Assembly: GCA_035510575.1 (NCBI GenBank)
Contig: DATKGV010000006.1
Span: 1-62,319 of the forward strand
Direction: 5' to 3'
Length of the DNA stretch: 62,319 nt
Source: Minisyncoccota bacterium
GTDB taxonomy: Bacteria > Patescibacteriota > Minisyncoccia > Phycocordibacterales > UBA9973
The stretch's first letter is position 1, and the number at the start of each line of letters is the position of its first letter. Below the pieces are notes generated by a model. The model saw only the letters and a list, made by a program, of their open reading frames with translations, was not told the origin of the DNA and did no database searches. Below, in pieces: positions 1 to 19,323 of the stretch. The position numbers were made by a program, and so were the translations under genes.

Positions 1-292
1 GAGGGGAGCAAAAGGGAAATTTTTGGCTCGAACCGATGCGACTTTTCATTTTAGATAGCAAACAAGCCATAATTATTGCTTCAGAAGAAAATTTGGAAGA
101 CAAGAAAAATTTTCTTAAAAAGATTGGCTCGAACCATCTTCTCGACGCTCGCACGCTTTTATTTTCTCCGAAAAAATCTTGGGAAATCCTTTTGAATTCT
201 TCCGTTTCCGAAATTCCCGCCGAACTCTCGCGCGCTTCGCGCGCGCCGAATTTTGAGACTCTACCTAGCTGGCTCCGGGTATACTTCAAAAT

Positions 293-509
293 CCGAACTC
301 ATTTTCAAAACAATATTGAAAGCTAATCTCACGCTCGACGTTTTTCTTAATTTTAATATTTCTACTACGCTCTGATAATGTGCTAATTCAAAATACGGAC
401 TCGGAAAATGGAAACAAAATTTTGGGGATTAGGATCCCGCCACAGGCGGGCAAGTTCCATTTTCCTCGACTGTGTCTTTTGGCGAGATTTCAAATTCTGC
501 CCGCAGGAG
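293..509. repeat. Left arm of a ~200-bp imperfect inverted repeat (partner 8312-8510)
   Basis: The reverse complement of 293-509 aligns with 8312-8510 at roughly 85% identity by eye (ctgcccgcaggag 497-509 vs ctcctgcgggcag 8312-8324). Both arms keep the ggaaaatggaa/ttccattttcc hairpin. The left arm has an extra small hairpin insert, cccgccacaggcggg, at 436-450. Confidence 0.85.
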
Positions 510-565
510 GGGTTTGGGGAGGAATGCGGGCGGGTATTAAATTTAATGAAATTTTTTGTAAAATA

Positions 566-574
566 TGCTATAAT
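566..574 (+). promoter_or_regulatory. Extended -10 element TGCTATAAT, 6 nt upstream of ATG 581
   Basis: TGnTATAAT match. The spacing puts the transcription start at or next to the start codon. Confidence 0.6.
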
Positions 575-580
575 GAACAC

Positions 581-1600
581 ATGTCAAAAATAGATTTAAT
601 TAAAAAAATTGAAGCTAAAAGAGGGTCAAAAGTTATCACTTATATTACCAGCGATAGACAAGGACCAGTTAATGCTCGCGTAGCTATGGATATAATTCCG
701 ATTATTAGCGAGCAACTTCGTAAAATTGGAAAAACTACTAAAATTGACCTTTTCTTATATACAGCCGGAGGCGATACGATGGTTCCTTGGCGTTTAGTTT
801 CAATGATTCGCGAATATTGCGATACTTTTTCTGTACTTGTGCCTTACAAGGCGCACAGCGCCGGAACAATGATTGCCCTCGGTGCTGATGAAATTGTGAT
901 GAGCGACCTGTCAGAAATTTCACCGATTGATCCATCAACGGCAAATGTTTTTAATCCGTCCGACCCAACTAACCCGCAAAATAAAATTCCAATTTCCGTG
1001 GAGGATGTTATCGCATACTTTGACTTGGCGAAAAATAAATTTGGTATAAAAAGTGATGAGGATTTAACTAAAATATTTAATAAATTTGTGGAAGCCAATC
1101 CGCAAATTCATCCGCTTGCTTTGGGAAATGTGAACCGCACTCACAATCTTATTCGTCTTATTGCAAAACGTTTGCTCAAGAGCCATAAAGAGCCAATAAA
1201 GGAAGATCAGATTGAAAAAATAGTTGAATTTTTTACTGAAAAACTATATTCGCATACTTATTTTATTGGCAGAAAAGAAGCCAAGGAAGAACTGGGCGTA
1301 AAATCAGTCATGGAAGCAGATTTAGACCTTTCTAATCTGATGTCCGATTTGTACGCAGAATATGCAAAAGAAATGGAGTTGCAAAATACTATTTGGAATC
1401 CGGAAAACGAGCTTGGAATGAATACAAGTCAAAATAAAAAAGAATATAAAGTAGCTTTTGTGGAAAGCGCCATTCTTTCAAAGGTATATCAATTAACAAT
1501 GGAATTTAAACGCCAGCAGGTAATGGTAGCTCAACCAAACGGCGTTCAAATCCCGCAAGAACAAGTCGCTATGCGGGTGGTGGCTCAGGGGTGGAAATAA
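581..1600 (+). CDS. SDH-family (ClpP/S49-like fold) serine protease
   Basis: MSKIDLIKKIE...ITYITSDRQG...FLYTAGGD...VPYKAHSAGTMIALGADEIVM...ISPIDPS resembles the serine dehydrogenase proteinase / ClpP-class family. The 380-580 part of the tracked ORF crosses the inverted repeat and lies upstream of the -10 box, so ATG 581 is preferred. Confidence 0.7.
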   Translation: MSKIDLIKKIEAKRGSKVITYITSDRQGPVNARVAMDIIPIISEQLRKIGKTTKIDLFLYTAGGDTMVPWRLVSMIREYCDTFSVLVPYKAHSAGTMIALGADEIVMSDLSEISPIDPSTANVFNPSDPTNPQNKIPISVEDVIAYFDLAKNKFGIKSDEDLTKIFNKFVEANPQIHPLALGNVNRTHNLIRLIAKRLLKSHKEPIKEDQIEKIVEFFTEKLYSHTYFIGRKEAKEELGVKSVMEADLDLSNLMSDLYAEYAKEMELQNTIWNPENELGMNTSQNKKEYKVAFVESAILSKVYQLTMEFKRQQVMVAQPNGVQIPQEQVAMRVVAQGWK

Positions 1601-1604
1601 AAAT

Positions 1605-2276
1605 ATGAAAAAAATAAATATTTTTGTGCGGTTAATTATCATTTTAATTATATCAATATTTTTGCTGTGGTTATCTTTTTACTTTTTAAGTATCAAAATT
1701 GATTCTAATTTTTTTGTAGCACTATCAACTTTAATTGTTGGTTTTGGAGCTATTTATATTTACATAACACAAAGATTTGATTCAAAGGAAGATGCAGCAA
1801 AAATTATAATTCAAGAGATTAGAAGAGCAGAAGATATTATTTCTGATTACAAAAATACGGGTTCTTATCAATTTGCAAAAAAAATTATTGCTACAAATAG
1901 TTGGAACAAAAATATTCATTACTTTGTTGATGATTTATCACCCGATGAATTAGATAAAATAAGTGACCTTTATTCAAATGGTGAGTTTTTAGATTCACAA
2001 ATACAATTAATCGCTAAGATAACCCTAGAGGATGATATTAAACGAGTATCAATTCAAAGAGAATTTAATATAGACCAACAAGAAGAAAAAATAAAAAGCA
2101 CAAATGATCTAACTATTTTTGATTTAGTTCAAATTAACAAAAATTCTGGAAAACTTCAAATTGAACCAGTGCCCGCCTTATGGAAGCCAAGATTAGACCA
2201 AATTAGTTTAACCTTAACTCTAATTTATCATTCCACGATTGTGTTGAAATTAAAAAAAATTGCTGGACTTGAGTGA
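1605..2276 (+). CDS. Membrane protein (two N-terminal TM helices plus a soluble tail), unknown function
   Basis: Hydrophobic N-terminus IFVRLIIILIISIFLLWLSFYFL and FFVALSTLIVGFGAIYIYI. Starts 5 nt after the protease stop. Confidence 0.6.
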   Translation: MKKINIFVRLIIILIISIFLLWLSFYFLSIKIDSNFFVALSTLIVGFGAIYIYITQRFDSKEDAAKIIIQEIRRAEDIISDYKNTGSYQFAKKIIATNSWNKNIHYFVDDLSPDELDKISDLYSNGEFLDSQIQLIAKITLEDDIKRVSIQREFNIDQQEEKIKSTNDLTIFDLVQINKNSGKLQIEPVPALWKPRLDQISLTLTLIYHSTIVLKLKKIAGLE

Positions 2277-2333
2277 TTTTTCCTTTATTTTTAAAGAAAA
2301 ATGTGCTAAAATGCGAATATTGTTCGTGTTTTT

Positions 2334-2990
2334 ATGGATTATTCAACTTACAAAAACTCAATCATAATTCTTGATCAGTCTGCTTGGCAACAGGTTGCTT
2401 TTTCACTTTCCAATATTGATGTGTATAAATTCCTTTCAGATAACAAAATTAAGGCTGTTGCTACATCGGATTCTGCACAGGAACTGTCCTATCAAGCTTA
2501 TAATCCAACACTTTTTGGTGGTCAATATGCAAGTACTGTGACAGCTTCTGAATTAAACTCTAAACAAAGTTATATTCTTTCTAGCTCGAATGGGTCGCTT
2601 ACTTTTCCAAGCTTAGATACAGGATATAACATTGATATTTTGAACCCATTTATTTATTCTATTCCGCGGACACTTTGGGATACTTCTATAGTAATGGAAA
2701 AGTTAAAAAGAGCAACTCGAAGTCAGGCAGATGTAAGTAATATTTATCTTTGCAGAATTTTAAAAGAGATGAATTTAAATTTCTTTATTTTTACAAATGA
2801 TCAAAATCAAATTAAGCAAATAAAAATTGAAGGATTTAAATATTTAAGACCAGATCAACTTTTTTCTTGGATGTGTAGGGAAAATTTTATTGATCCGCGA
2901 AAAGGTGGCTGGAATTTTAAAAAGAGAAAAGAACATAATAAGCAGTGGACTAAACCAGATGTTAAATTTAAGGATATATTAGATTTATGA
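2334..2990 (+). CDS. Hypothetical protein, possibly a PIN-like nuclease fold
   Basis: 218-aa ORF. IIILDQSAW near the N-terminus and FIFTNDQNQ near residue 150 resemble PIN acidic motifs (weak). Its stop overlaps the mod start (ATGA). Confidence 0.5.
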   Translation: MDYSTYKNSIIILDQSAWQQVAFSLSNIDVYKFLSDNKIKAVATSDSAQELSYQAYNPTLFGGQYASTVTASELNSKQSYILSSSNGSLTFPSLDTGYNIDILNPFIYSIPRTLWDTSIVMEKLKRATRSQADVSNIYLCRILKEMNLNFFIFTNDQNQIKQIKIEGFKYLRPDQLFSWMCRENFIDPRKGGWNFKKRKEHNKQWTKPDVKFKDILDL

Positions 2991-4717
2991 ATAAATACGA
3001 TAAATTTTCAAAAGAAGATTTAATAAAGGTTGTTGAAAAACTGGAATCTCGCAAAAAATACGGGTTGATTTGGGATGAGGAAAAAGTTAAAGAGCAATTT
3101 GAAAAAGATGCCGAAAATGCGTTACCGGTTTTGAAGGAAATTAAGGGAAAGGAAATTAAAGACAAAAATGATAAGCCTGTTAATATTTTAATTGAAGGCG
3201 ATAATTATCATGCTTTGTCGGTTTTGAATTTTACGCATCAAGAAAAAATTAACGCAATTTATATCGACCCGCCATATAACACAGGAGCAAAAGATTGGAA
3301 ATATAATAATGATTATATAGATTCAACTGATTCGTATCGGCACAGTAAGTGGATCTCTTTTATGGATAAAAGACTTAGGCTCGCAAAAAATCTTTTAACA
3401 GAGGAAGGCATAATTTGTGTGACTATTGACGACTATGAAATTCCAAGACTTTTACTTTTAATGGAAGAAATTTTTGGAGAATTTAATCATCTTGGCACAA
3501 TTGCTATTAGAAACAATCCTGCGGGCAGATCAACCACAAAAGGAGTTTCAATCACCCATGAATATGCTATTTTTTTTGGAAAATCAGATATCTCTCAAGT
3601 TTTTCGTTTAGAAAGAAGTCAGATACAAAAAGATAGATACGATCAAAAAGACAACAAGGGTTCTTTTGAATGGGTAAATTTTAGAAAACCGGGCAGTATG
3701 CGCGCTGAATCCCCCAGTATGTTCTATCCTGTTTTTATAACGACAGATTCTGTGAGAATTCCAAACATGAAATGGGATTCAATAAAAGAAGAATGGATTG
3801 CCTTAGAAAAACCTCAAAAAAATGAAAAAATATTATATCCAGTCGATGATAACGGCGAAGAAAGACGATGGCGATATGGTGTAGAGAGAGCTAGGGCAGA
3901 AATTGACGAATTTAAACCAAAAATACAGAAAGGTAAACTGCATGCTTATGTTAAAGGCAGGCTAAACGATGAAGGAATTTTACCAATGACATGGTGGGAT
4001 AAAAAAGAGTATTCCTCTACGGCTTATGGTACAAACCTGCTTAAAGATATGTTTTCTGAACTTCAAGCTTTTTCTTATCCAAAATCTATTTTTGCGGTAA
4101 TGGATTGCTTAAAAGTTATGTCGGACAAGAAGGATGCTATTATTTTAGATTTTTTTGCTGGTTCAGGTACTACGGGTCATGCAGTATTAGAATTAAATAA
4201 ACAAGATGGTGGAAGCCGGCAATTTATTCTTTGTACAAACAATGAAAAGAATATTGCCACAGAAGTATGTTATCCAAGAATTGAAAAAGTAATTCAAGGG
4301 TACAAAAATCAAAAAGGTAAAAAAGTTGAAGGTTTAGGAGGTTCTCTTAAATATTTAAAAACAAAATTCGTTAAAAATGCTTCAAGCAAAGACGACTTCA
4401 AAATTCGCATAACTAAAGAATGCACGGAGATGCTCTGTTTGCGAGAAGGTATTTTTGACGAAATAAAAAAGACGAATGATTATAGAATTTTTCAACAGGG
4501 CGACAAAACTTTAGCGGTATATTATTCTTTGGAACATAAAACTTTATCCGAACTTAAAAAAGAGTTAAATAAAATTGACGGGGAAAAAATCTTTTATTGT
4601 TTTACCCTTGACCCTCTCGGCTTAGATAAAAGCGATTTCAGAGGTTGGAATAATGTTTCTTTGGAATCCATTCCGCAAAAAATACTAGATGTATATAAAC
4701 AAATTTATGAATATTAA
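2987..4717 (+). CDS. mod: Type III restriction-modification DNA methyltransferase (Mod; beta-class N6A/N4C)
   Basis: Motif IV IYIDPPYNTG precedes motif I ILDFFAGSGTTGHA. The gene sits immediately upstream of, and overlaps, a res helicase-nuclease gene. Confidence 0.85.
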   Translation: MNKYDKFSKEDLIKVVEKLESRKKYGLIWDEEKVKEQFEKDAENALPVLKEIKGKEIKDKNDKPVNILIEGDNYHALSVLNFTHQEKINAIYIDPPYNTGAKDWKYNNDYIDSTDSYRHSKWISFMDKRLRLAKNLLTEEGIICVTIDDYEIPRLLLLMEEIFGEFNHLGTIAIRNNPAGRSTTKGVSITHEYAIFFGKSDISQVFRLERSQIQKDRYDQKDNKGSFEWVNFRKPGSMRAESPSMFYPVFITTDSVRIPNMKWDSIKEEWIALEKPQKNEKILYPVDDNGEERRWRYGVERARAEIDEFKPKIQKGKLHAYVKGRLNDEGILPMTWWDKKEYSSTAYGTNLLKDMFSELQAFSYPKSIFAVMDCLKVMSDKKDAIILDFFAGSGTTGHAVLELNKQDGGSRQFILCTNNEKNIATEVCYPRIEKVIQGYKNQKGKKVEGLGGSLKYLKTKFVKNASSKDDFKIRITKECTEMLCLREGIFDEIKKTNDYRIFQQGDKTLAVYYSLEHKTLSELKKELNKIDGEKIFYCFTLDPLGLDKSDFRGWNNVSLESIPQKILDVYKQIYEY

Positions 4718-7037
4718 TCTTAAACCATATCAAGAAAAAGCCGTTGATCAGTTGATTGAAACTGCTGTTAAGTTGTTAAATTTTGACGGACCGGGCGAAG
4801 CCTTGGTTTTTCAAGCCCCTACCGGTTCGGGTAAAACTATTATGACTGCTAAATTTATTGAGGGACTTATCAAAGAACTTCCCAATGACGATATTTGTTT
4901 CGTGTGGATGAGTATTGGTAAAGGCGAATTGCATTTGCAAAGCAAGCATTCTTTGGAAAAAGTTTTTGCCGGATTTCCTCGGGTTACTTTGGCCGAAGAA
5001 GAATTTTCAGGTGGACGAGAGAGAATTGTTAAAAATGAAGTCGTGGTGGCTAATTGGGAAAAATTACGAAGCAAAGACAGTAAGACCGGCGAATGGAAAG
5101 TGCTTTTAATGAAAGACGGCGAAAAATTAAATTTCCGTGATGTGTTGGAAAAAACTAGAGAGCAAAGAAAAATTATTTTGATTATTGATGAAAGCCACAC
5201 TAACGCCACCAGCGAAAGAGCTCAAGAATTACGACAGATTATTTCGGCTGACTTGGTTATGGAAATGAGCGCTACGCCAAAATTAATACCAACTGCGGCT
5301 CAGTTGTTTGAAACCAAAGCTGGTTTTGTGAAAGTAAATTCTAAAGATGTAATTGAGGAAGGAATGATTAAAAAAGAATTAATAATTAATGAGGATATAG
5401 AAAAAATTGCAAAGTCGGAAGAAGATTCTCAAACGGCTGTACTAGAAGCTTCCTTTCAAAAGCGACTTGAGCTTTTGAAAGCTTTTAAAAAAGAAGGATC
5501 GAGTATTAATCCTTTGGTTTTAGTACAAATTCCAACAGCCGAAGCCGGCGAGCAAAAAATTGAAGCGGTCAGAAAATTTTTAGCTAGTAAAAATATCACT
5601 GAACGCAAAGATGGACATGGCAACGGGAAACTTGCCGTTTGGTTGGCTGAGCAAAAATCAGAGCTGATTGATTGGATTTCCGAACCGGACAATGAAATTG
5701 AATTTTTAATTTTTAAACAAGCCATTGATACCGGCTGGGATTGTCCTCGAGCTCACATCTTGGTTAAATTCCGAGAAACCCATAATATTGTTTTTGAAAT
5801 CCAAACCGTTGGTCGTATTTTACGAATGCCAGAACAGAAACATTATGCTAATGAAATTTTAAACAAGGGTTATATTTATACCAACCTACAATCAATTTCA
5901 GTTAAAAAAGAAGAATACAATCCGAATATCATCAAACATCTTAAGGCAACTCGTATTAAGAAATATAAACCGATTAAAATTGAATCATACTACAAAGCTC
6001 GTGCTGATTATGGCGATATTACTTCAAGTTTTGTGCCAGTATTTGAAAAGACAGCGAATGCGTATTTTGGCATTTCTAAAAATGGAAAACTTAAGGAAAA
6101 TATAAAAGCAGTTGAAAATAAAGATATTAACCTCGATATTAAAAAGTATCAACAAGAGTTAATTGCTGACACTTCGCTTGATGTGAAAAGTTTTGACGAA
6201 ATTGAAGGAAAAATAAATCCTGACGCATGGGCTAGATTAAATGTTGCAACTGACGAATTGCAGATTTTATTTGAACAAGTTATTAAAAACAACTTAGGAT
6301 CGTTTAAAAATGTTAAGCGTTCTGTTCCGGCTGTTAAAACGGCTATTTATCTTTGGTTTAATAATAATCTTGATGCAGAAAATTGGCCTGACCCGTCTCT
6401 TTTAACTCAAAAAATATTTTTGAATAATAAAAACAGAATTGTGTTTGAACATATCTTATCAAAAGCCATTAGTGAATATGTAATAGTTAAAGAGAAAGAA
6501 GTCCGCAAGCGTGTAGAGGAAAGCGAACAAAAATATTCTTTTGAACTTCAAAAAGAACAATTTTATAATGAATACACTGACGAAATAATTACGGTAAAAA
6601 ATTATGCTTACGAGCCATGTTATTTAAATACAGACCGATCTAACCCAGAGCGGGAATTTGAAACATTTTTAAATATTAATACTTCAAAAATTGATTGGTG
6701 GTGGAAAAATGGAGAAAACAAGCAGGATTATTTTGGTGTTAAATATGAATATCAAAATAATATTTATACTTTTTATCCAGACTACTTAGTTAAATTAACT
6801 GGCGGTCGTCTTGGATTTTTTGAAGTTAAAGATTCAGGCGATCGTGATGGAAAAACTTACACTAAAGCCAAGGCAGAAGCTTTGCAAAAATATATCGCAA
6901 GTCAAAAAAGTAAAAAGTTATTCGGCGGTATTGTTATAGAAAAAAATCGTGCATGGCTTATTAACGACAATAAAATTTTTGATTGGGAAAAATGCGAGCG
7001 TGGTGTTTGGGATGAGTGGGAAGTTTTAAAGTTATAA
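4689..7037 (+). CDS. res: Type III restriction enzyme Res subunit (SF2 helicase plus PD-(D/E)xK nuclease)
   Basis: FQAPTGSGKT (motif I), IIDESH (motif II), QTVGRILR (motif VI), and C-terminal FYPDYLV...FFEVKD. An alternative start is ATG 4707. Confidence 0.85.
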   Translation: MYINKFMNINLKPYQEKAVDQLIETAVKLLNFDGPGEALVFQAPTGSGKTIMTAKFIEGLIKELPNDDICFVWMSIGKGELHLQSKHSLEKVFAGFPRVTLAEEEFSGGRERIVKNEVVVANWEKLRSKDSKTGEWKVLLMKDGEKLNFRDVLEKTREQRKIILIIDESHTNATSERAQELRQIISADLVMEMSATPKLIPTAAQLFETKAGFVKVNSKDVIEEGMIKKELIINEDIEKIAKSEEDSQTAVLEASFQKRLELLKAFKKEGSSINPLVLVQIPTAEAGEQKIEAVRKFLASKNITERKDGHGNGKLAVWLAEQKSELIDWISEPDNEIEFLIFKQAIDTGWDCPRAHILVKFRETHNIVFEIQTVGRILRMPEQKHYANEILNKGYIYTNLQSISVKKEEYNPNIIKHLKATRIKKYKPIKIESYYKARADYGDITSSFVPVFEKTANAYFGISKNGKLKENIKAVENKDINLDIKKYQQELIADTSLDVKSFDEIEGKINPDAWARLNVATDELQILFEQVIKNNLGSFKNVKRSVPAVKTAIYLWFNNNLDAENWPDPSLLTQKIFLNNKNRIVFEHILSKAISEYVIVKEKEVRKRVEESEQKYSFELQKEQFYNEYTDEIITVKNYAYEPCYLNTDRSNPEREFETFLNINTSKIDWWWKNGENKQDYFGVKYEYQNNIYTFYPDYLVKLTGGRLGFFEVKDSGDRDGKTYTKAKAEALQKYIASQKSKKLFGGIVIEKNRAWLINDNKIFDWEKCERGVWDEWEVLKL

Positions 7038-7042
7038 TTTTT

Positions 7043-7174
7043 ATGGACGAAGAATTATTTGAATTTGCCAAAGATAATGATTTGAGTTTTGAAGAAGCGG
7101 AAGAGGTTCAGAATTTTGCGGACGAAGAAGATCTTGATTTAGATGAAGCTTTAGAAATTTGGCAAGAATTATAA
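7043..7174 (+). CDS. Small highly acidic protein (43 aa), not in the ORF track
   Basis: Hand translation gives MDEELFEFAKDNDLSFEEAEEVQNFADEEDLDLDEALEIWQEL, with 19 D/E and 1 K. It starts 6 nt after the res stop and ends 1 nt before the next ATG. Confidence 0.5.
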   Translation: MDEELFEFAKDNDLSFEEAEEVQNFADEEDLDLDEALEIWQEL

Positions 7175-7175
7175 T

Positions 7176-7811
7176 ATGGCAGATGAACCATTAAACAATG
7201 AGCAAATAGAGCCTTCTGGCGCATTACCCATAAATATAATGGGTTCTGAACCCTCCAATATGCCCCCTGAAGCCCTAGAATCCCCTAAAAACGCAGATAT
7301 ACCCGTTTCCCTCAATAATGATAATCCTGAAAATAGCCCTATTTCTACACCCATACCCGAAGAAGCTAAATCCGAGGAACTGCCCGCCGAAGGCGGAAAA
7401 ACCAAGGAAATTTCTGAACCTGTGCAAACTCCTGAAACCCGAACGGCTCAAATACCAGTAAATGAGCCGTTGAACCCAGAACCTGAGCCATTAAAATCTG
7501 CACCAGTTTCACCTCCGCAATCACAGCCAGCTCCCGTTCCGATTTTTGTTGAATCGCAACAAAATAAAATTTCTCTTGCTCGTGAACTTCTCATTAAAGC
7601 TCGAAATGCAATTCAATTCCGAAAAAGAAAAAAGTTGGATCGTGTTATGACTTTGTTTCTAAAAAAATCTAAAATCACGAATGATGAAGTGCGGGAATTT
7701 TTGCACGTCTCTGATGCCACAGCGGAAAGATATTTAAATGTTTTGGAAAAAGAAAATAGAATCAAGCAAGTCGGTAAAACAGGACACGCGGTTTCGTATT
7801 CTCGAATTTAA
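7176..7811 (+). CDS. Proline-rich protein with a C-terminal winged-helix DNA-binding domain
   Basis: Low-complexity P/E-rich N-terminal ~130 aa. The C-terminus NDEVREFLHVSDATAERYLNVLEKENRIKQVGKTGHAVSYSRI looks like a wHTH. Confidence 0.65.
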   Translation: MADEPLNNEQIEPSGALPINIMGSEPSNMPPEALESPKNADIPVSLNNDNPENSPISTPIPEEAKSEELPAEGGKTKEISEPVQTPETRTAQIPVNEPLNPEPEPLKSAPVSPPQSQPAPVPIFVESQQNKISLARELLIKARNAIQFRKRKKLDRVMTLFLKKSKITNDEVREFLHVSDATAERYLNVLEKENRIKQVGKTGHAVSYSRI

Positions 7812-7904
7812 TCTGAATTTTTTTGGGGAGTAGGTTTGCGTGCACGCACGGGTGGGGTAGAGTTTTTGTGTAATCACAAAAACTCGGGGCAAGCACGAGT
7901 ATTT

Positions 7905-8214
7905 CGCCTCGGGCATTTTCCGCTAGGGTGTCCATGACTAAAGGACGAGTGCCTGACCCGAATTGCAATCCAGAAATCGAAAGCGAAAGCTACACACTAA
8001 ACACAATATTGAAAAACGTAGAGTGGGGATGGCGAGGGCAGACTCCTCGTAATCGAGGAGAGCCCGACCCGGGGAGAGGAAACTTCCTCTCCCCAAGAAG
8101 TTGCGGGCAATCAAGTGAACGGCTCATTTACTGGTATTTGAGCCGTTCGGTTATTTTGTTTGCTCGCTCATAGGCATCTAGGCACTCGTAGCCCTAGCGG
8201 AAATGCCCGAGGCG
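7905..8214 (+). ncRNA. GC-rich structured element closed by a long-range 24+10 bp stem (unclassified ncRNA or MITE-like element)
   Basis: cgcctcgggcattttccgctaggg (7905-7928) pairs with ccctagcggaaatgcccgaggcg (8192-8214). acgagtgcct (7945-7954) pairs with aggcactcgt (8180-8189). Internal hairpins: ctcctcg-taat-cgaggag, ggggagagga-aact-tcctctcccc, gaacggctca...tgagccgttc. The overlapping ORF 7928-8173 looks non-protein. Confidence 0.45.
8117..8161 (+). terminator. Intrinsic-terminator-like hairpin inside the structured element
   Basis: gaacggctca / tgagccgttc stem followed by ggttattttgttt. Confidence 0.5.
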
Positions 8215-8264
8215 GATGCCGAGGGTGTACCTCTAAACTTTAAATAACCACTGAACTAGAAAAA

Positions 8265-8273
8265 TGGTATAAT
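8265..8273 (+). promoter_or_regulatory. Extended -10 TGGTATAAT reading into the right repeat arm and tRNA-Arg
   Basis: Exact TGnTATAAT match about 410 nt upstream of the tRNA. Confidence 0.45.
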
Positions 8274-8311
8274 TTGCCCGAGACAATGTTTTGAATTTTG
8301 GTTTTGAATTT

Positions 8312-8510
8312 CTCCTGCGGGCAGAATTTGAAATCTCGCCAAAAGACACAGCCGAGGAAAATGGAAATCCTAATCCCCAAAATATTTGTTTCCATTTTCC
8401 GAGTCCGCATTTTCAATTTCGCATTACCACATTAGTAGAGCGTGGTAGAAAGTTTAAAATAAATTCATTCGTGGAGCGTGAGATTAGTGTTTATTTTGAA
8501 AATGGGTTCG
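8312..8510. repeat. Right arm of the inverted repeat (partner 293-509)
   Basis: See the left arm. Frames of overlapping ORFs are not conserved between the copies (small frame-breaking indels), so both arms are non-coding. Confidence 0.85.
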
Positions 8511-8684
8511 AGCTTGGTACAATAAAGACACAAACGAGCAAGGCGAGTGCAGTGCGCGATAGCAAAGCATGATATGCTTTGCGTGAGGGACGAGAAGACC
8601 TTGAGTATATCGCACGGAGCGAAGCGAGTACGATACGAAAGGTGTACCGAATCTGTAAGATTCTAGTCCCGAATTGTATTAGAT

Positions 8685-8756
8685 GCCCCTGTAGTTTAAT
8701 GGATAGAACTGCGGACTTCTAAGCCGTTAATCGAGGTTCGATTCCTCGCGGGGGCA
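8685..8756 (+). tRNA. tRNA-Arg (anticodon TCT)
   Basis: Cloverleaf folded by hand: acceptor gcccctg/cgggggc, D stem gttt/gaac, anticodon loop cTTCTaa, T arm cgagg-ttcgatt-cctcg. There is one A-G mismatch at the base of the anticodon stem. CCA is not encoded. Confidence 0.85.
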
Positions 8757-8870
8757 CACGTTAGTGAGACCGACCGAGACGGCTTAATGCCGGCTCTTCG
8801 GAGAGTTAAGCACAAAAAGATATTCCTAGTGAGTGCCAGAAAAATATTATATAATTGTGGTAATAATTAA

Positions 8871-9548
8871 ATGAGAGTATTTATAAATAAAATTAAATCC
8901 TATTTTTTAGCGCATAAGTTTTTTGTCATAAGCCTTTTCATTATAATAATCACAATTCTAATTTTTGAACCAGGATTATTTCTTGCAATACCATTTTTCT
9001 TTATTTCGTCTTTTAAAGATGCGCTTATCAGTTTAAACAGCTTCATTTACTTTGTTGGCCAACTTCTATATCTCGGCTTGGTTATTTGGGCCGCAATTCA
9101 TGTCCATAAAATAAATTCAGGCCCAAAAACAGAAGTTACCAGCAAATATCCAGCCATTCAAACAATCTGGTTTTGGTGGATTATAATAACTTTTTCTTAC
9201 ATGTTTTGTATTTTTAGTTATGATCCACAAAGTAGCTTTAATGTAATAAGTCGTCTTGGTGGGATTTTTGGTTTATTTACTCCTATTGGTCCGGAAAATT
9301 TTGTATTATTTTCTTTTCTTATTTTGATAGTGGTCCTGGTTGTGATTTCCAAGATGGAAAAGAAAACGAGACAAATTGAAAAAATATCCGCAAGAAAAAA
9401 AATTCTGTATTCATTATGTGTGCTTTTTGTTTTGACTTTTTTTGTTGATCTTTTTGGAATGTTTACTTCCTTTGGAAGTTATAAATACTTTATTCAATAT
9501 ACGATATTAAACCGCAGCGCTTACATGGATTTAAGAAATATTCAATAG
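8871..9548 (+). CDS. Polytopic membrane protein, unknown function
   Basis: 225-aa ORF with about 6 hydrophobic segments. Confidence 0.6.
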   Translation: MRVFINKIKSYFLAHKFFVISLFIIIITILIFEPGLFLAIPFFFISSFKDALISLNSFIYFVGQLLYLGLVIWAAIHVHKINSGPKTEVTSKYPAIQTIWFWWIIITFSYMFCIFSYDPQSSFNVISRLGGIFGLFTPIGPENFVLFSFLILIVVLVVISKMEKKTRQIEKISARKKILYSLCVLFVLTFFVDLFGMFTSFGSYKYFIQYTILNRSAYMDLRNIQ

Positions 9549-9741: not shown

Positions 9742-9780
9742 GAGGGGGCGGATACTCGTATCTTCCCCCTCATTATTTTT
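9742..9780 (+). terminator. Hairpin plus T-tract between the peptide gene and the radical SAM gene (leaky terminator/attenuator)
   Basis: gaggggg (9742-9748) pairs with ccccctc (9765-9771). An inner gatac/gtatc stem is present, followed by attattttt. Confidence 0.55.
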
Positions 9781-9799
9781 ATAGAAAGGAAGTGTGTAC

Positions 9800-10879
9800 A
9801 TGGAATGTAAGATTGAAATGCCTCGTCTGGAAGTTGAAACCGAAAACTCGATTTATGAGATCGAATTCGGCGAAATCCAGATAGAGATCACTGGCAAGTG
9901 CAACATGCGCTGTCAGCATTGCAGGGCGGCTAGCCAGCCCAAACAAGACATGCCGATTGATCAGATTATAAAGATCATCCGGTTCGCTCGGCAGTTCAGC
10001 CCAGACTATAAGGAGATCGTACTCTCTGGAGGTGAACCGCTTTTGCATCGTAACTTCGCTGAGGTTCTGAGGCAAGTTCGTTGCAACGGTGGTGAGTTCA
10101 TCACCCTCACAACCAACGGGTCTCTACTCACAAAAGAGCACCTCTCGCTCATTGGAGAGCTGTCCTTTCCGCGCTTTATGCTTTCGGTAAGTCTGGATAG
10201 CCTCAATCCCGAGGAACACGATAAGTTTCGTGTTTATGAAGGGGCTTTTCCCAAGGCTGTTGCGGCTCTGCGTCAGGTGGCGGAGAGCGGATTGCCAAAC
10301 GTTGTCGCTTCAATGCGCTCAACCATTCGGGCATCTCAAATCGGCGAGATGGAAAACATGGTGGACTTCGCCAGAAACCTAGGATGCAAGCGTGTAAGCT
10401 TTTCCGCAATACATCCCGCGGGAAGAGCTATCGAGCGTGACGATCTCTGGATGACTCGCGAACAGAAGTATGCGTTTGTGACTGAGGTTTATCGACTGAA
10501 GGCGTTATTCCCTGACCTCAACGTCACTACAAACGACCCGCTCAAGTGTCTGCTCCGAGGAGAAAACGACATGGGGAAAAACGGGGAGTTGGTTTTTGAC
10601 GGCTGTAGCGCCGGCGCTATTACTTTCAACGTCAACTCCGACGGCACCATGACTCCGTGCGCCTTACTCGATATCCCGATGATGAACACCTTCTCTCTTT
10701 CCATTGAGGAAATGACCGAACGTTATCGGGAGAATCCGATTGTCAAAAACATGCTGGAGATGAACCTGAAGGGTAAGTGCGGCGCTTGCCACCTAAAATA
10801 TCAATGTGGCGGATGCCGGGCTCGTGCCCTGATTCAGATGGGGGATTTCTTGGAAGAGGACCCTCATTGCTGGCTGTAA
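9800..10879 (+). CDS. Radical SAM enzyme with a C-terminal SPASM domain (peptide maturase-like)
   Basis: GKCNMRCQHC (CX3CX2C). SPASM cysteines at FDGCSAG...TPCALL and GKCGACHLKYQCGGCRARA. ATG 9800 is preferred over GTG 9794. Confidence 0.85.
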   Translation: MECKIEMPRLEVETENSIYEIEFGEIQIEITGKCNMRCQHCRAASQPKQDMPIDQIIKIIRFARQFSPDYKEIVLSGGEPLLHRNFAEVLRQVRCNGGEFITLTTNGSLLTKEHLSLIGELSFPRFMLSVSLDSLNPEEHDKFRVYEGAFPKAVAALRQVAESGLPNVVASMRSTIRASQIGEMENMVDFARNLGCKRVSFSAIHPAGRAIERDDLWMTREQKYAFVTEVYRLKALFPDLNVTTNDPLKCLLRGENDMGKNGELVFDGCSAGAITFNVNSDGTMTPCALLDIPMMNTFSLSIEEMTERYRENPIVKNMLEMNLKGKCGACHLKYQCGGCRARALIQMGDFLEEDPHCWL

Positions 10880-10913
10880 TTATCCTTCCAAACAACAAGA
10901 CCGCTTTTCAACG

Positions 10914-11472: not shown

Positions 11473-11501
11473 TTGACATAAACCCATATTAAGTGTATAA
11501 T
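11473..11501 (+). promoter_or_regulatory. Consensus sigma70-type promoter (TTGACA-17 nt-TATAAT)
   Basis: TTGACA at 11473-11478, a 17-nt spacer, and TATAAT at 11496-11501. Confidence 0.7.
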
Positions 11502-11539
11502 ATGAAGGTAAGGTTCTTTTAGAAAGAGAGGGATAAATA

Positions 11540-12058
11540 ATGTCAACGTTGCTTAAGCTGGTCTCTACGGCGGTCGTTTTGGCAACCACCAAGCCTTTTG
11601 TTTCGAAGGAGAAATTCGTTCGCGACACCAGCACAAAGGCCAAAGTGAAAATCTCCGGACTCGGAGGAAATTTCACTGCGTGGTTTCTCGAAGGCGACGG
11701 CAAAGTGGAAGCGCCTATCACAAAAACTTCCATCCACATCCACCGGCTGAAAAAGGCCTCAGTGGACACTATGATCATTGAGGAAATCGGCGGAGAAACA
11801 AAAGCCGAAACCACGCTCACCGCAATCTACTCAATGATGAAGAAGCAACCGAGGGGCAAGAAGGGTCTCCTGCTCACTGATGGGTGGGCAAACATCTTCT
11901 ATGTCCGCGATAAGAACGGCGTGCTTCGCGCAGTTAGCGTGGACTGGAACGGTGACGGTTGGCATGTTTTCGGATGCCGTACCGACTACACTGTTGCGTG
12001 GGGTGGCGGCTCTAAGTCATCTCCTCGCAATTTCGTTCTAACGTCCTCATCGAGTTAA
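11540..12058 (+). CDS. Hypothetical protein (172 aa), GC-rich orphan
   Basis: Consensus promoter and a purine-rich RBS region upstream, with a terminator downstream. No motif recognised. The antisense ORF 11374-11820 is rejected. Confidence 0.6.
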   Translation: MSTLLKLVSTAVVLATTKPFVSKEKFVRDTSTKAKVKISGLGGNFTAWFLEGDGKVEAPITKTSIHIHRLKKASVDTMIIEEIGGETKAETTLTAIYSMMKKQPRGKKGLLLTDGWANIFYVRDKNGVLRAVSVDWNGDGWHVFGCRTDYTVAWGGGSKSSPRNFVLTSSSS

Positions 12059-12079
12059 TCTTCGGACAGCCGAACATCC

Positions 12080-12117
12080 AGACACTCGGTTCGCTCAGGC
12101 GGGCCGGGTGTCTTTTA
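12080..12117 (+). terminator. Intrinsic terminator
   Basis: agacactcgg...ccgggtgtct stem followed by tttt. Confidence 0.6.
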
Positions 12118-12180
12118 AATATACTTTTTTAATTTTAAATTCTCACAAATTCTTATTGTGTTTTGTGATATAATTTTATT

Positions 12181-12774
12181 ATGCAAACTGAAATTGAAGC
12201 AAAATTTTTAGATATCGATGTTGAAAAAACTAGAGCTAAACTCAGAGAAGTGGGGGCGGTATTGGAGTATCCTGAACGCTTGATGAAACGAACAACCTAT
12301 GATCTTAAAGATAAAAGTTTGCGTAATGAAAAAGCTTGGGTGCGAGTCCGAGATGAAGGCAGTGGCAAAATAACTTTAAGTTACAAGAAACTTGTCGATC
12401 GGACACTTCATGGAACCAAAGAAATAACCGTAGATGTTAGTAGCTTTGAAACCACGTGCGAATTTCTGGAAGCTTGCGGTTTTGAAAGTAAATCGTATCA
12501 AGAAACCAAAAGAGAAAAGTGGATGCTGGGAAAATCAGAAATAACAATAGATACTTGGCCTTGGATACCAACTTTTTTAGAAATAGAATCAGAAAGTGAA
12601 GAAGAAATAAAGAGAGTAGCAGACTTAGTTGGTTTTGATTGGGGCACAGCTCTGCATGGCAGCGTAGAGGTGGCGTATCAAAAAGTTTTTAATGTGACAG
12701 AAGATGAAATCGATAGCTGGAAAGAAATTACTTTTATTTTGGTGCCGGAATGGCTGGAAATTAAGAGAAAATAG
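12181..12774 (+). CDS. CYTH-domain protein (CyaB-type class IV adenylyl cyclase / triphosphatase fold)
   Basis: N-terminal EIEAKF (ExExK) and later alternating charged beta-strand motifs (VRVRD, LSYKK, FLEIESE). Confidence 0.75.
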   Translation: MQTEIEAKFLDIDVEKTRAKLREVGAVLEYPERLMKRTTYDLKDKSLRNEKAWVRVRDEGSGKITLSYKKLVDRTLHGTKEITVDVSSFETTCEFLEACGFESKSYQETKREKWMLGKSEITIDTWPWIPTFLEIESESEEEIKRVADLVGFDWGTALHGSVEVAYQKVFNVTEDEIDSWKEITFILVPEWLEIKRK

Positions 12775-18596: not shown

Positions 18597-19323
18597 AGAA
18601 ACAATCATATCGACTTCAAATATTTTTTACACGTATTTAAATGAAGAATCCGGCGAGCATTTCAATGTTCTTAGAGATATTTCGTTAAGCGTCAATTCTG
18701 GGGAATTTGTTTCTTTAGTCGGGCCGTCCGGTTGCGGCAAGTCAACGCTTTTAAGAATTCTTTCCGGCTTAACAAAAGCAAAAAGGGGGAATGTCATTTC
18801 CAAAACAAAAAAGATAGCCATGGTTTTCCAAAACTTCGCTCTTTTCCCATGGCTCTCAGTCAAGGAAAATATTGAATTCGGCTTGAAGATGGAAGGAATC
18901 AAAAAAATAGAAAGGGAAAAGATTGTCGCGGAGAAAATCAGGGAAGTCGGACTTTCCGGTTTTGAAAATAAATATCCGGTTGAACTTTCCGGCGGAATGA
19001 AGCAAAGAGTCGGCATTGCCAGAGCTCTGGCTGTCAGCCCTGACCTCTTGTTGATGGACGAGCCGTTTTCAAGCCTGGATGTTCTGACTGCCGAGAAATT
19101 GCGCGCTGAACTTTTGGATATTTGGCTGAAATACAAGGTGACTATAATTATGGTTACTCATTTGGTTGAAGAAGCGGTGGAACTTTCTGACAGGATTTTT
19201 GTCTTTGCTCCAAGGCCGACTTTTATAAAAGACGTTATTGAAGTGAGAATCCCGCGGCCTCGCAACGAAAGATCGAAGGAGTATTACGATTTGGTTGATA
19301 AAATCGCCAAGCAGATAGAATAG
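18583..19323 (+). CDS. ABC transporter ATP-binding protein
   Basis: GPSGCGKST (Walker A), LSGGMKQR (signature), LLLMDEPFSSLD (Walker B). Confidence 0.9.
   Translation: MQNNKETIISTSNIFYTYLNEESGEHFNVLRDISLSVNSGEFVSLVGPSGCGKSTLLRILSGLTKAKRGNVISKTKKIAMVFQNFALFPWLSVKENIEFGLKMEGIKKIEREKIVAEKIREVGLSGFENKYPVELSGGMKQRVGIARALAVSPDLLLMDEPFSSLDVLTAEKLRAELLDIWLKYKVTIIMVTHLVEEAVELSDRIFVFAPRPTFIKDVIEVRIPRPRNERSKEYYDLVDKIAKQIE

Follow-up and report, generated by a model that had tools for sequence, protein, structure and literature searches.

The question raised by this locus is which unit of organization holds together seven co-oriented genes that lead, almost without spacing, from a ClpP-fold protease to a pair of restriction-modification (R-M) genes of type III. 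The genes occupy positions 581-7811 of a 62,319-nucleotide (nt) stretch from a Minisyncoccota bacterium (GenBank assembly GCA_035510575.1, contig DATKGV010000006.1, positions 1 to 62,319), which was analyzed at its full length and is called the window below. In an initial annotation, made from the sequence alone, the seven genes were taken as one operon in which a protease, a membrane protein and a PIN-like protein formed a trio in front of the R-M pair. All seven plus-strand open reading frames (ORFs) were present at the coordinates and with the spacing given there, and the gene identities were good, the guess of a PIN-like protein included. As the organizational unit, the operon gave way to a larger one, a recombinase-associated, invertible cassette bounded by inverted repeats; the repeats, a recombinase fragment at 1-326 and a conserved non-coding element of about 700 nt at 7812-8510 had been missed. 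In the reading that we favor as the probable one, the locus is a serine-recombinase-associated invertible, and possibly exchangeable, defense cassette that carries a type III R-M system and a candidate protease-effector module.

The genes of the block follow one another closely on the plus strand. P1, an SDH-family ClpP-fold serine protease of 339 amino acids (aa; 581-1600), was separated by 4 nt from P2, a membrane-anchored, all-helical protein (1605-2276), and P2 by 57 nt from P3, a PIN-like protein of 218 aa (2334-2990). The P3 gene overlapped by 4 nt the gene of the type III methyltransferase Mod (2987-4717), and mod stood immediately upstream of the gene of the type III helicase-nuclease Res (4689-7037), with a 29-nt overlap at 4689-4717. 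After a gap of 5 nt came P6, an acidic peptide of 43 aa (7043-7174), and after 1 nt more P7, a winged helix-turn-helix (wHTH) protein (7176-7811). Protein families were sought with the Pfam, NCBIfam, PHROGs and PADLOC (PADLOC-DB 2.0) profiles, and RNA families with the Rfam covariance models. Comparison loci and contigs bear labels such as L001 or L044, and two sets of them are referred to: 25 loci from GTDB species representatives, anchored on the protease alone (the unbiased loci), and 73 metagenome loci retrieved by a scan with the ~30-nt repeat motif described below (the motif loci).

The whole block was bracketed, over about 8.2 kb, by inverted arms of about 210 nt. The left terminal inverted repeat (294-509, plus strand; I1-I3, I5 and I9 of the inverted-repeat search) is a partial copy of the non-coding element, corresponding to its profile positions ~483-630, with an nhmmer match running from 509 to 341 on the minus strand. 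The right one (8312-8510, minus strand) is contiguous with the internal domain of that element, and its conservation extends to ~8530. An inner core of 55 nt occurred in two copies in the 62-kb window, with 0 expected, and contained a motif of about 30 nt, TTTGGCRAGATTTYAAATTCTGCCMGCRGG, which has imperfect dyad symmetry (GGCGAGA-TTTCAAA-TTCTGCC) and lies at 478-507 in the left repeat and at 8314-8343 on the minus strand in the right one. An Xer/dif-type site was rejected for this motif, which by eye bore no resemblance to the dif consensus.

Inversion of the segment between the arms was observed in contig L044 (ENA ERZ27248486). One part of this contig was the reverse complement of 8312-9367 of the window, identical at 1056/1056 nt and holding a membrane-protein gene, a tRNA-Arg and the right arm, and the contig continued from there into 510-3462 of the window, on the protease side, with 2953/2953 nt identical. 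The longest exact repeat between the arms was 40 nt (470-509), far below the assembler k of 141, so that the join is not a repeat-induced chimera; and since the arms are identical over these 40 nt at most, the crossover lies within them. The orientation of the window was present in L047, from the same sample as L044, and the cassette exists in both orientations in the same strain. In a second sample, JGI 3300014502, the window orientation was found in L050, and in L041 the right-arm type stood beside the protease (123/123 nt); L041 has no unique flank and is only consistent with the inverted orientation. A metagenome scan for the other inversion junction, with a 22-mer from the left flank of the window, gave no match. 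Between L047 and the window 40 positions differed, 35 of them in 7750-8500 and 3 in 3462-7750 (compare L047:4300-5160), a pattern that hints at exchange or conversion of the backbone in patches among members of one population.

The candidate enzyme was found by way of the genes outside the repeats in related loci; in the batch Pfam scan of the window, no recombinase was among the top families. The commonest family just outside the repeats was a large serine recombinase of ~500 aa with Resolvase, Recombinase and Zn_ribbon_recom domains, which was present there in 15 of the 43 loci with at least 700 nt of outside flank. The window itself opens with the 3' end of a large serine recombinase gene (1-326, plus strand), the rest of which falls beyond the start of the contig. 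This gene points toward the cassette, and its stop codon (324-326) is inside the outer part of the left repeat. Its translation matched residues 409-484 of 512 of the L093 recombinase, itself composed of the same three domains, at 54% identity (E = 6e-23; tblastn, BLASTP). The sites of serine recombinases are imperfectly palindromic, and DNA that lies between two inverted sites is inverted by these enzymes. Here, the recombinase, whose catalysis is presumed, would cut and rejoin the DNA at the motif and in this way flip the cassette.

The position of the recombinase gene relative to the motif fell into two arrangements. It read away from the cassette, with its start 355-664 nt from the motif, in L051, L054, L057, L065, L068, L083, L093, L109 and L121, and toward the cassette, with its end 180-270 nt from the motif, in L058, L060, L076 and L103; in L092, the recombinase match lay ~2.5 kb from the motif. 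Some loci had the gene at the cargo end and others (L058, L065, L083 and L103) at the P7 end, as predicted if the segment flips next to a fixed gene. One recombinase per element predicts such a gene at about half of the ends, and the observed 35% was compatible with most elements having one.

The same architecture was found around other cargo. L018 carries the motif upstream of its protease and L020 carries it upstream of a Fic gene, and overall the motif tracked the homologues of P7, not the protease: in ~30 of the 73 motif loci, a P7 gene read toward a motif copy 0.5-1.2 kb away, as at the right end of the window. With nhmmer, a rule emerged in which a full copy of the non-coding element (positions 2-630) lies at the P7 end and an inverted partial copy (483-630), representing the terminal ~150 nt of the ~210-nt repeat, lies at the cargo end; both copies were seen together in the window, L075 and L103. 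Six elements of 5.4-8.9 kb were complete, namely the window, L075, L103 and three contigs that are each split over two loci; in these last three, convergent motif pairs lay 5.4-8.3 kb apart. They share one plan: a repeat, a promoter, variable cargo arranged as one operon, P7 (sometimes with the acidic peptide), the ~640-nt element and a repeat. The ends of the partial loci were consistent with it, and at least 15 contigs started or stopped within ~100 nt of the motif.

At the cargo ends of these cassettes, a plus-strand gene began ~95-145 nt after the motif, and in ~20 loci a small Xre-type helix-turn-helix (HTH) protein was encoded. The cargo consisted mostly of R-M systems of types I, II and III (HsdM, HsdS, D12 and EcoRI-type methylases, N6_N4 methylases and ResIII), together with S49, S51 and S24 peptidases and NUDIX proteins. 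S49 peptidases were cargo in two cassettes, and in L058 a gene for an S49/NfeD-like ClpP-fold peptidase (L058:4961-5875) lay in the outside flank, beyond the recombinase gene; together with the SDH occurrences, these point to an association of ClpP-fold proteases of more than one family with the elements. The motif had no match in IMG/VR, and 7812-8530 of the backbone had no blastn match in the phage and plasmid collections. The differing flanks of the cassettes suggest that they have moved between genomic sites. The action of the recombinase may allow cassettes to be swapped between two sites, and such swapping would explain how one backbone comes to hold unrelated cargo in different lineages.

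Several points weigh against this reading. At 28 of the 43 informative ends no recombinase was seen, the part of one that is encoded in the window is limited to its final ~107 residues, and L044 was the only contig that spanned an inverted junction with unique flank, the junction on the recombinase side not being recovered. No empty site was found among the loci examined. Large serine recombinases normally need sites of only ~50 bp, and the model accounts neither for the ~490-nt internal domain of the non-coding element nor for P7. The protease, 74-95% identical across lineages, is atypical of a fast-evolving defense gene. The cargo promoter is inside the flipping segment, so that inversion has no obvious on/off consequence, and RecA-dependent exchange within the 40-nt identical core would be an alternative route.

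On these last two points rests a different explanation, in which the inversion is incidental: the repeats would be relics of a duplicated promoter and backbone, recombined on rare occasions by RecA in the 40-nt tract, which gave two coexisting arrangements, and forming no programmed switch or cassette-exchange system, and the recombinase would be the integrase of a genomic island. The crossover indeed fell in the longest identical tract, where homologous recombination would act too, and no expression switch was apparent. More distant large serine recombinases (30-34% vs L093) adjoin an SDH protease gene at L021:8225-9799 and L023:1043-2332, and no flanking inverted repeats were detected around these two recombinase-protease loci, which also speaks for it. 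Such an origin does not account well for the repetition of one repeat architecture and a near-invariant palindromic motif in six complete elements with unrelated cargo, for one recombinase clade that abuts the repeats beside either type of end, for both orientations at 100% identity in one sample with a second sample consistent, or for the contig breaks clustered near the motif. We judge the incidental origin unlikely and retain the invertible cassette as the probable unit.

The part of the cassette that stays constant was found at its right end. The acidic peptide and the wHTH protein had been proposed as controller or antidote of this particular operon, a role that is at odds with the recurrence of P7 and P6-like peptides beside completely different cargo; both belong to the backbone of the cassette, not to the protease. 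P7 was the only protein family common to the cassettes and the largest gene family in them (17 loci), with homologues in fixed geometry in ~30/73 motif loci. Its N-terminal half is acidic, rich in Pro, disordered and variable, and its C-terminal part has a highly conserved basic helix and the wHTH (alignment A8); the wHTH matched HTH_24 at 6.5e-4, just below the Pfam cut-off, and was strongly conserved in 13 homologues. P7 was rejected as the recombinase in view of this N-terminal half and of a conservation confined to the wHTH of ~75 aa; P7 is not an enzyme. In P6, the count of 19 acidic residues (D/E) among 43 was borne out, and tblastn matches were obtained in L020, L080, L113 and L117. A small, very acidic ORF (MDEE...DEAEHVKEIMD..EGLDEEEAVELKDDL) was observed after P7 in L058, L065, L084 and L100 (alignment A4, columns ~320-540); it resembles the P6 of the window, which precedes P7.

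Within the P7 coding sequence lies a hairpin, hp1 (7441-7472, plus strand; GAACGGCTCA-N12-TGAGCCGTTG), which is an inverted copy of the invariant hairpin hp2 in the non-coding element and forms with 8118-8150 a perfect inverted repeat of 33 nt. It encodes the invariant TAQIPVNEPL, and 13 further loci had kept its nucleotide sequence, including those whose P7 was only ~50% identical. The complementarity of the hp1 and hp2 loops was mostly kept, with one compensatory change (L053 and L075), and this single change was too weak to support a kissing interaction. The idea that hp1 and hp2 bound a second invertible segment was rejected, for six assemblies were all collinear across it and the post-inversion frame would give only a short, non-conserved tail.

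From the P7 stop codon to the repeat extends one highly conserved non-coding element of ~640-700 nt, of which full-length copies were present in >20 loci (nhmmer). Its internal domain (7823-8311, plus strand) includes hp2 (8117-8148), a closing stem (~7906-7929 / 8193-8215) and an outward-facing extended -10 sequence, TGGTATAAT (8265-8273), which is the second conserved one of the locus and lies downstream of the operon. The fold of 7812-8240 had z = -8.55 relative to shuffles. No Rfam model matched at its gathering score over the whole window, and none except tRNA matched at E <= 1 over 7700-8900. A structure of 109 pairs was examined on 22 distinct copies, in which 96.8% of the cells were paired; 23 pairs had changed on both sides, compared with 11.9 +/- 1.8 in shuffles (0/500 reached 23) and <=7 in slid registers. 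The compensatory changes were in helix 1, in the stem ACTCCTCG/CGAGGAG and its variants and in the hairpin of the repeat, where GGAAAATGGAAA/TTTCCATTTTCC became GGAAAAGCAAAA/TTTTGCTTTTC, and most other helices were invariant. Considered by eye, RNase P RNA, tmRNA, SRP RNA, 6S RNA, guide RNAs of the IS605/IS110 type and retron RNA were rejected for want of signature sequences, partner genes or Rfam support. A group II intron was rejected in the same way; the hairpin GAACGGCUCA...UGAGCCGUUC is superficially like domain V, with no signature, partner gene or Rfam support.

The paired structure might also belong to the DNA, the ~640-nt element then being no RNA but a double- or single-stranded platform that offers P7 and the recombinase their operators and their recombinational enhancer or accessory sites. 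Most of the helices are invariant perfect palindromes, the 10-bp palindromic arms and 12-bp spacer of hp1 and hp2 have the typical geometry of a dimer operator, and the terminal part acts as DNA because the crossover lies there. Also in its favor, wobble pairs were rare and symmetric in the helices predicted on both strands (12 vs 11 of 1187 cells), a count of G.U against A.C that was uninformative for the strand. What tells against the DNA platform is that stems kept their pairing through sequence change, as in ACTCCTCG/CGAGGAG, ACTCCGAC/GTCGGAG, ACTCCGCC/GGCGGAG, ACTGCTGG/CCAGCAG, helix 1 and the repeat hairpin; pairing that survives free sequence change points to a folded single strand and away from a site to which protein binds. 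In columns 139/427 and 454/462 and in helix 1, the P7-sense strand has near-invariant G.U pairs, which the opposite strand would turn into A.C mismatches, and the element follows the operon directly, with no terminator between them. A DNA platform is possible in our view, though we doubt it. As part of the backbone, P7 and the structured element would serve the control of recombination, regulation or maintenance of the cassette.

Turning to the cargo, the first gene was confirmed as an SDH-family protease: P1 matched PF01972 with 58.2 bits against a cut-off of 31.3 (8.7e-16) and phrog_11747 at 5.5e-38. Its score of 72.2 bits against the NCBIfam equivalog NF047768, with a cut-off of 250, places it in PF01972 and outside that equivalog. 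A candidate catalytic motif, HSAGT, is visible in the sequence, and no relative was found among the PDB sequences. P1 had 2759 relatives at E <= 1e-10, the best 120 of which were 74-95% identical and came from several candidate phyla or classes, spanning Nomurabacteria, Zambryskibacteria, Moranbacteria and Paceibacterota.

P2 is predicted to be anchored by two N-terminal transmembrane helices (AlphaFold2 pLDDT 80.5). It belongs to no family in Pfam, NCBIfam, PHROGs or PADLOC, and its predicted structure had no meaningful match in the structure database. More than 157 homologues were found. They stood directly after the protease in L007-9, L010/11, L026, L027, L029, L039 and L040; in L014 other genes intervened, in L012/13 there was no protease, and L015 begins at the P2 gene. 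P3 had 18 homologues, each of them directly after an SDH protease where the context was known. At the sequence level, P3 matched no Pfam, NCBIfam or PADLOC family at E <= 0.1, and its sole PHROG match was to a family of unknown function (E = 0.055). At the level of the fold, the predicted model (AlphaFold2 pLDDT 80.1, pTM 0.79) agreed with the PIN-like guess: the top 17 Foldseek matches in the PDB were all PIN domains, among them Nmd4, HARP, AF0591, SMG6 and VapC4 (probability 0.5-0.99, E >= 6e-3, TM-score 0.29-0.58). The acidic residues D14, E50, D133 and D156 were invariant in 17 sequences and are located in the model after the strand 10-13, in the helix 45-51, at the start of the helix 132-145 and after the strand 150-153. 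P3 is a PIN-like protein and a putative nuclease.

The trio itself did not hold as a unit. In 4/4 contexts (L001/2, L003, L004/5 and L006), a P3 homologue followed an SDH protease of ~341 aa with no transmembrane-protein gene between them, and P2 homologues followed the protease without P3. The conserved unit is the SDH protease with one variable downstream partner, and the window stacks two partner types, P3 being the rarer, as L026 stacks a P2-type protein and then DUF6941. In 20 of the 24 evaluable unbiased loci, a same-strand ORF began within 45 nt of the protease stop or overlapped it. The partners in the unbiased loci were P2-type transmembrane proteins (5 loci) and DUF6941 (5 loci, in 4 of which a coiled-coil protein with C-terminal transmembrane helices came next), and further ones were DUF2130, DUF6680, DUF2335, Bro-N and an XhlA-like protein. 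Methyltransferases, DpnI, RadC, RhuM/Fic, AbiEii, NYN, Mrr, PDDEXK, Bro-N and SLFN-like helicases were encoded nearby, a neighborhood typical of variable or defense islands. A P2-type partner was observed in L010 beside a DpnI-type methyl-dependent endonuclease (L010:8720-9490) and in L015 beside a type III pair that a DUF3800 gene interrupts (L015:679-5498).

A conservation as extreme as that of the protease, combined with very diverse downstream genes, would also be expected of a housekeeping or quality-control protease of the Patescibacteria that marks the edge of variable regions, with the downstream genes as passengers. The protease of the window is inside a mobile or invertible cassette, and elsewhere it stands beside serine recombinases, Bro-N, RadC, RhuM/Fic and AbiEii. 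Upstream synteny was not kept, since L007 agrees with L008 in protease and P2 and differs from it in the genes upstream. In most loci the partner begins at the protease stop or overlaps it, as given above, and the same partner families recur, neither of which fits mere passengers. We regard the housekeeping role as very improbable. With low confidence, the protease and its partner may be viewed as a protease-gated effector pair that acts in second-line defense or in cassette addiction. In such a pair, sensing or processing would fall to the protease as the constant component, the membrane or nuclease partner would act as effector, and the two together would complement or stabilize the type III R-M system with which it travels.

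That R-M pair is apparently complete in the window, judging from profiles and motifs. Mod matched MTase_III of PADLOC (1.6e-78) and N6_N4_Mtase of Pfam (1.1e-31); its motif IV (IDPPYNTG, DPPY) precedes motif I (DFFAGSGTTG, FxGxG), with the target-recognition domain between them. Res matched ResIII of Pfam (7.7e-19) and REase_III of PADLOC (2.4e-17), and a PD-(D/E)xK-like signature, PDYLV...FFEVKD, was seen by eye at its C-terminus. Comparison with the closest relative of this cargo, L020:8652-18846, showed a Res that was 96% identical and a Mod that matched the window only at its two ends. At the DNA level, the matches were at 3011-3480 and from 4349 on, and the target-recognition domain is at 3273-4349. 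Two contigs, L044 and L047, are broken off at 3462, and the first position of L048 is 3273. Because the match of Mod is confined to the ends, Res is 96% identical and the contigs break at 3273 and 3462, the target-recognition domain of Mod looks like a hot spot of allelic replacement.

In L020, the order of the cargo was Fic, a protease (91%), an 80-aa protein, DUF2335, a 179-aa protein, Mod and Res, followed by the acidic peptide and then by a TnsA-like protein, an HTH-SocA/Panacea protein and NUDIX. This cargo lies between two tRNA-Thr genes and is accompanied by a perfect 30-nt inverted repeat (8733-8762 / 18737-18766). Of the motif, L020 keeps only a remnant of 41 nt, and it has neither P7 nor the structured element.

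Whether protease module and R-M pair form one system was the proposal with which this locus had entered the analysis: all seven genes would be a single defense system, with the trio as an abortive-infection back-up that is mechanistically tied to type III R-M, and with a controller or antidote made up of the acidic peptide and the wHTH protein. The tight or overlapping spacing and the one conserved leaderless promoter ahead of the block agree with it, as does the finding that type III Mod-Res came directly after the protease module in six architectures that are independent and divergent (the window, L004/5, L014/15, L019, L020 and L029), three of which belong to the 25 unbiased loci. The statement that P1-P3 correspond to no named defense system also stood: no PADLOC model matched, apart from a spurious Cas6 match for P1 (E = 0.0043). 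Against a single system are the lack of conservation of the trio, the absence of R-M downstream of the protease in 22 of the 25 unbiased loci, the type III R-M without protease in the sister cassettes L086 and L113, and the company that P7 and P6-like peptides keep with type I R-M, type II R-M and unrelated cargo. An integrated seven-gene system is quite improbable on this balance. The enrichment of the protease module with type III R-M is real, the link is not obligate and some link is plausible; an extra defense layer coupled to R-M, as first proposed, is possible.

The promoter ahead of the block was examined together with the cargo-end leader (510-580, plus strand), which is made up of a hairpin and an extended -10 sequence, TGCTATAAT. 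In the hairpin, the motif tail CTGCCCGCA pairs with TGCGGGC at ~524-530; the leader was conserved in L018 and L044, and a hairpin extension just inside the motif was found in most of 39 distinct cargo ends. The initial annotation had recognized a single promoter in the operon. Its extended -10 was indeed present at 566-574, and the claim that it is the only one was not assertable, with the consensus scan of the window at background: 32 promoter-like sites were counted against 28.6 expected and 6 terminator-like ones against 7.0 expected, which is uninformative. TGCTATAAT sits 6 nt 5' of the P1 ATG, in a position kept in L018 and L020, and so short a distance implies a leaderless mRNA. In the window (566-583), L018 (~3015-3030) and L020 (~8930-8948), the distance from a TATAAT box to the first ATG was only 6-8 nt, a sign that these cassettes may as a rule give leaderless mRNAs.

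The surroundings of the cassette are chromosomal. The batch Pfam scan identified ribosomal proteins, EF-G, EF-Tu, PGK and TIM on this Patescibacteria contig, whose nearest named relatives are Candidatus Nomurabacteria, Parcubacteria and Paceibacterota. The right flank contains tRNA-Arg(TCT) (8685-8757, plus strand) and the membrane-protein gene (8871-9548) that in L044 is joined in reverse to the protease end. Further on, a radical-SAM/SPASM-type gene (9794-10879) and an ORF (11540-12058) have ~45-52% G+C, compared with ~30% in their neighbors, and these high-G+C genes (9750-10900 and 11500-12250) beside the cassette may be separate recent acquisitions. An R.HinP1I-type restriction endonuclease and two GIY-YIG proteins are also encoded in 8871-62271 (batch Pfam scan), so that the contig carries at least one further restriction-related locus.

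Patescibacteria have tiny genomes, are mostly without CRISPR and are thought to rely on R-M and DNA uptake. How their defense genes are acquired and reshuffled is poorly understood, and a conserved cassette framework that is served by a recombinase and harbors R-M systems of all three main types would offer a concrete mechanism of turnover. In a wider and more tentative form of our reading, which we put forward as conceivable and no stronger, the Patescibacteria would possess a cassette system in which a chromosomal large serine recombinase, acting on one site in two inverted copies, flips self-contained defense cassettes and exchanges them between cells, with a backbone of the wHTH protein and a structured RNA or folded DNA of a new class, and with the protease and its partners as a new family of protease-gated effector modules. 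If true, recombinase-mediated cassette exchange would occur here in nature, in a role like that of integrons, and the backbone would be needed for the control of recombination or for maintenance of the cassette. The motif, P7 and the non-coding element provide sequence handles for finding defense cargo in uncultured lineages. Genome engineering may profit from a large serine recombinase whose natural substrate for inversion is defined, a large conserved structured nucleic-acid element that is absent from Rfam is a new object for experiments, and the widespread protease and variable-partner module is missing from the current defense catalogs and repeatedly lies ahead of type III R-M. In the literature on SDH_sah/PF01972 and on Patescibacteria R-M islands, no prior description of the cassette or of the protease module was found.

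Among known systems, the serine-invertase switches (Hin/hix of Salmonella, Gin/gix of phage Mu, Cin and Pin) are similar in that inverted, imperfectly palindromic sites bound the segment, the recombinase gene lies just outside one repeat, both orientations coexist and the crossover falls in a conserved core. They differ in several respects: the recombinase here is of the large serine type (~500 aa; Resolvase, Recombinase and Zn-ribbon, with catalysis presumed), whereas theirs has ~190 aa, and the repeats are ~210 nt long, compared with ~26-34 bp. A whole self-promoted operon of ~8 kb flips here, instead of a promoter or alternative gene ends, and this unit also includes a wHTH protein and a conserved 640-nt structured element.

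Phase-variable R-M systems are known as the "epigenetic invertons" of type I hsdS and the phasevarions of type III mod, in which hsdS half-genes are shuffled or mod is switched by simple-sequence repeats (PMC7672463, PMC7394358, PMC4948785). The cassette has in common with them R-M loci with inverted repeats and site-specific recombinases, and a target-recognition domain of Mod that varies (window vs L020). Unlike in those systems, a complete R-M operon flips together with extra genes, without rearrangement of any coding sequence, and the mod gene of the window showed no simple-sequence repeat. The R-M pair itself is like EcoP15I-type systems, with mod before and overlapping res, a beta-class N6-adenine methyltransferase, and a Res with a superfamily-2 helicase and a PD-(D/E)xK-like part. 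No difference in the pair was noted, except that as cargo it is preceded by three extra co-oriented genes.

The pdif modules of Acinetobacter plasmids, mobile insertion cassettes and integron cassettes are cargo modules without a recombinase of their own. They resemble the present elements in that the cargo is bounded by recombination sites, the recombinase is encoded outside, and unrelated cargo (defense, toxin-antitoxin) is placed on one framework. The sites described here are unlike dif or attC, the recombinase is a serine and not a tyrosine recombinase, the framework includes a constant P7 gene and a large structured element, and exchange of the cassettes is putative. Modular defense with a constant enzyme and swappable effectors is represented by CBASS, retrons and Thoeris, and proteases are contained in BREX BrxL, CalpL and IetS; PADLOC 2.0 holds no system with an SDH/ClpP-fold protease. 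The protease module shares with CBASS, retrons and Thoeris a conserved enzyme followed by alternative effector-like partners (transmembrane, PIN-like and XhlA-like) in island contexts. It departs from them in that it has no signaling enzyme, its protease is far more conserved than typical defense genes and its role in defense is putative.

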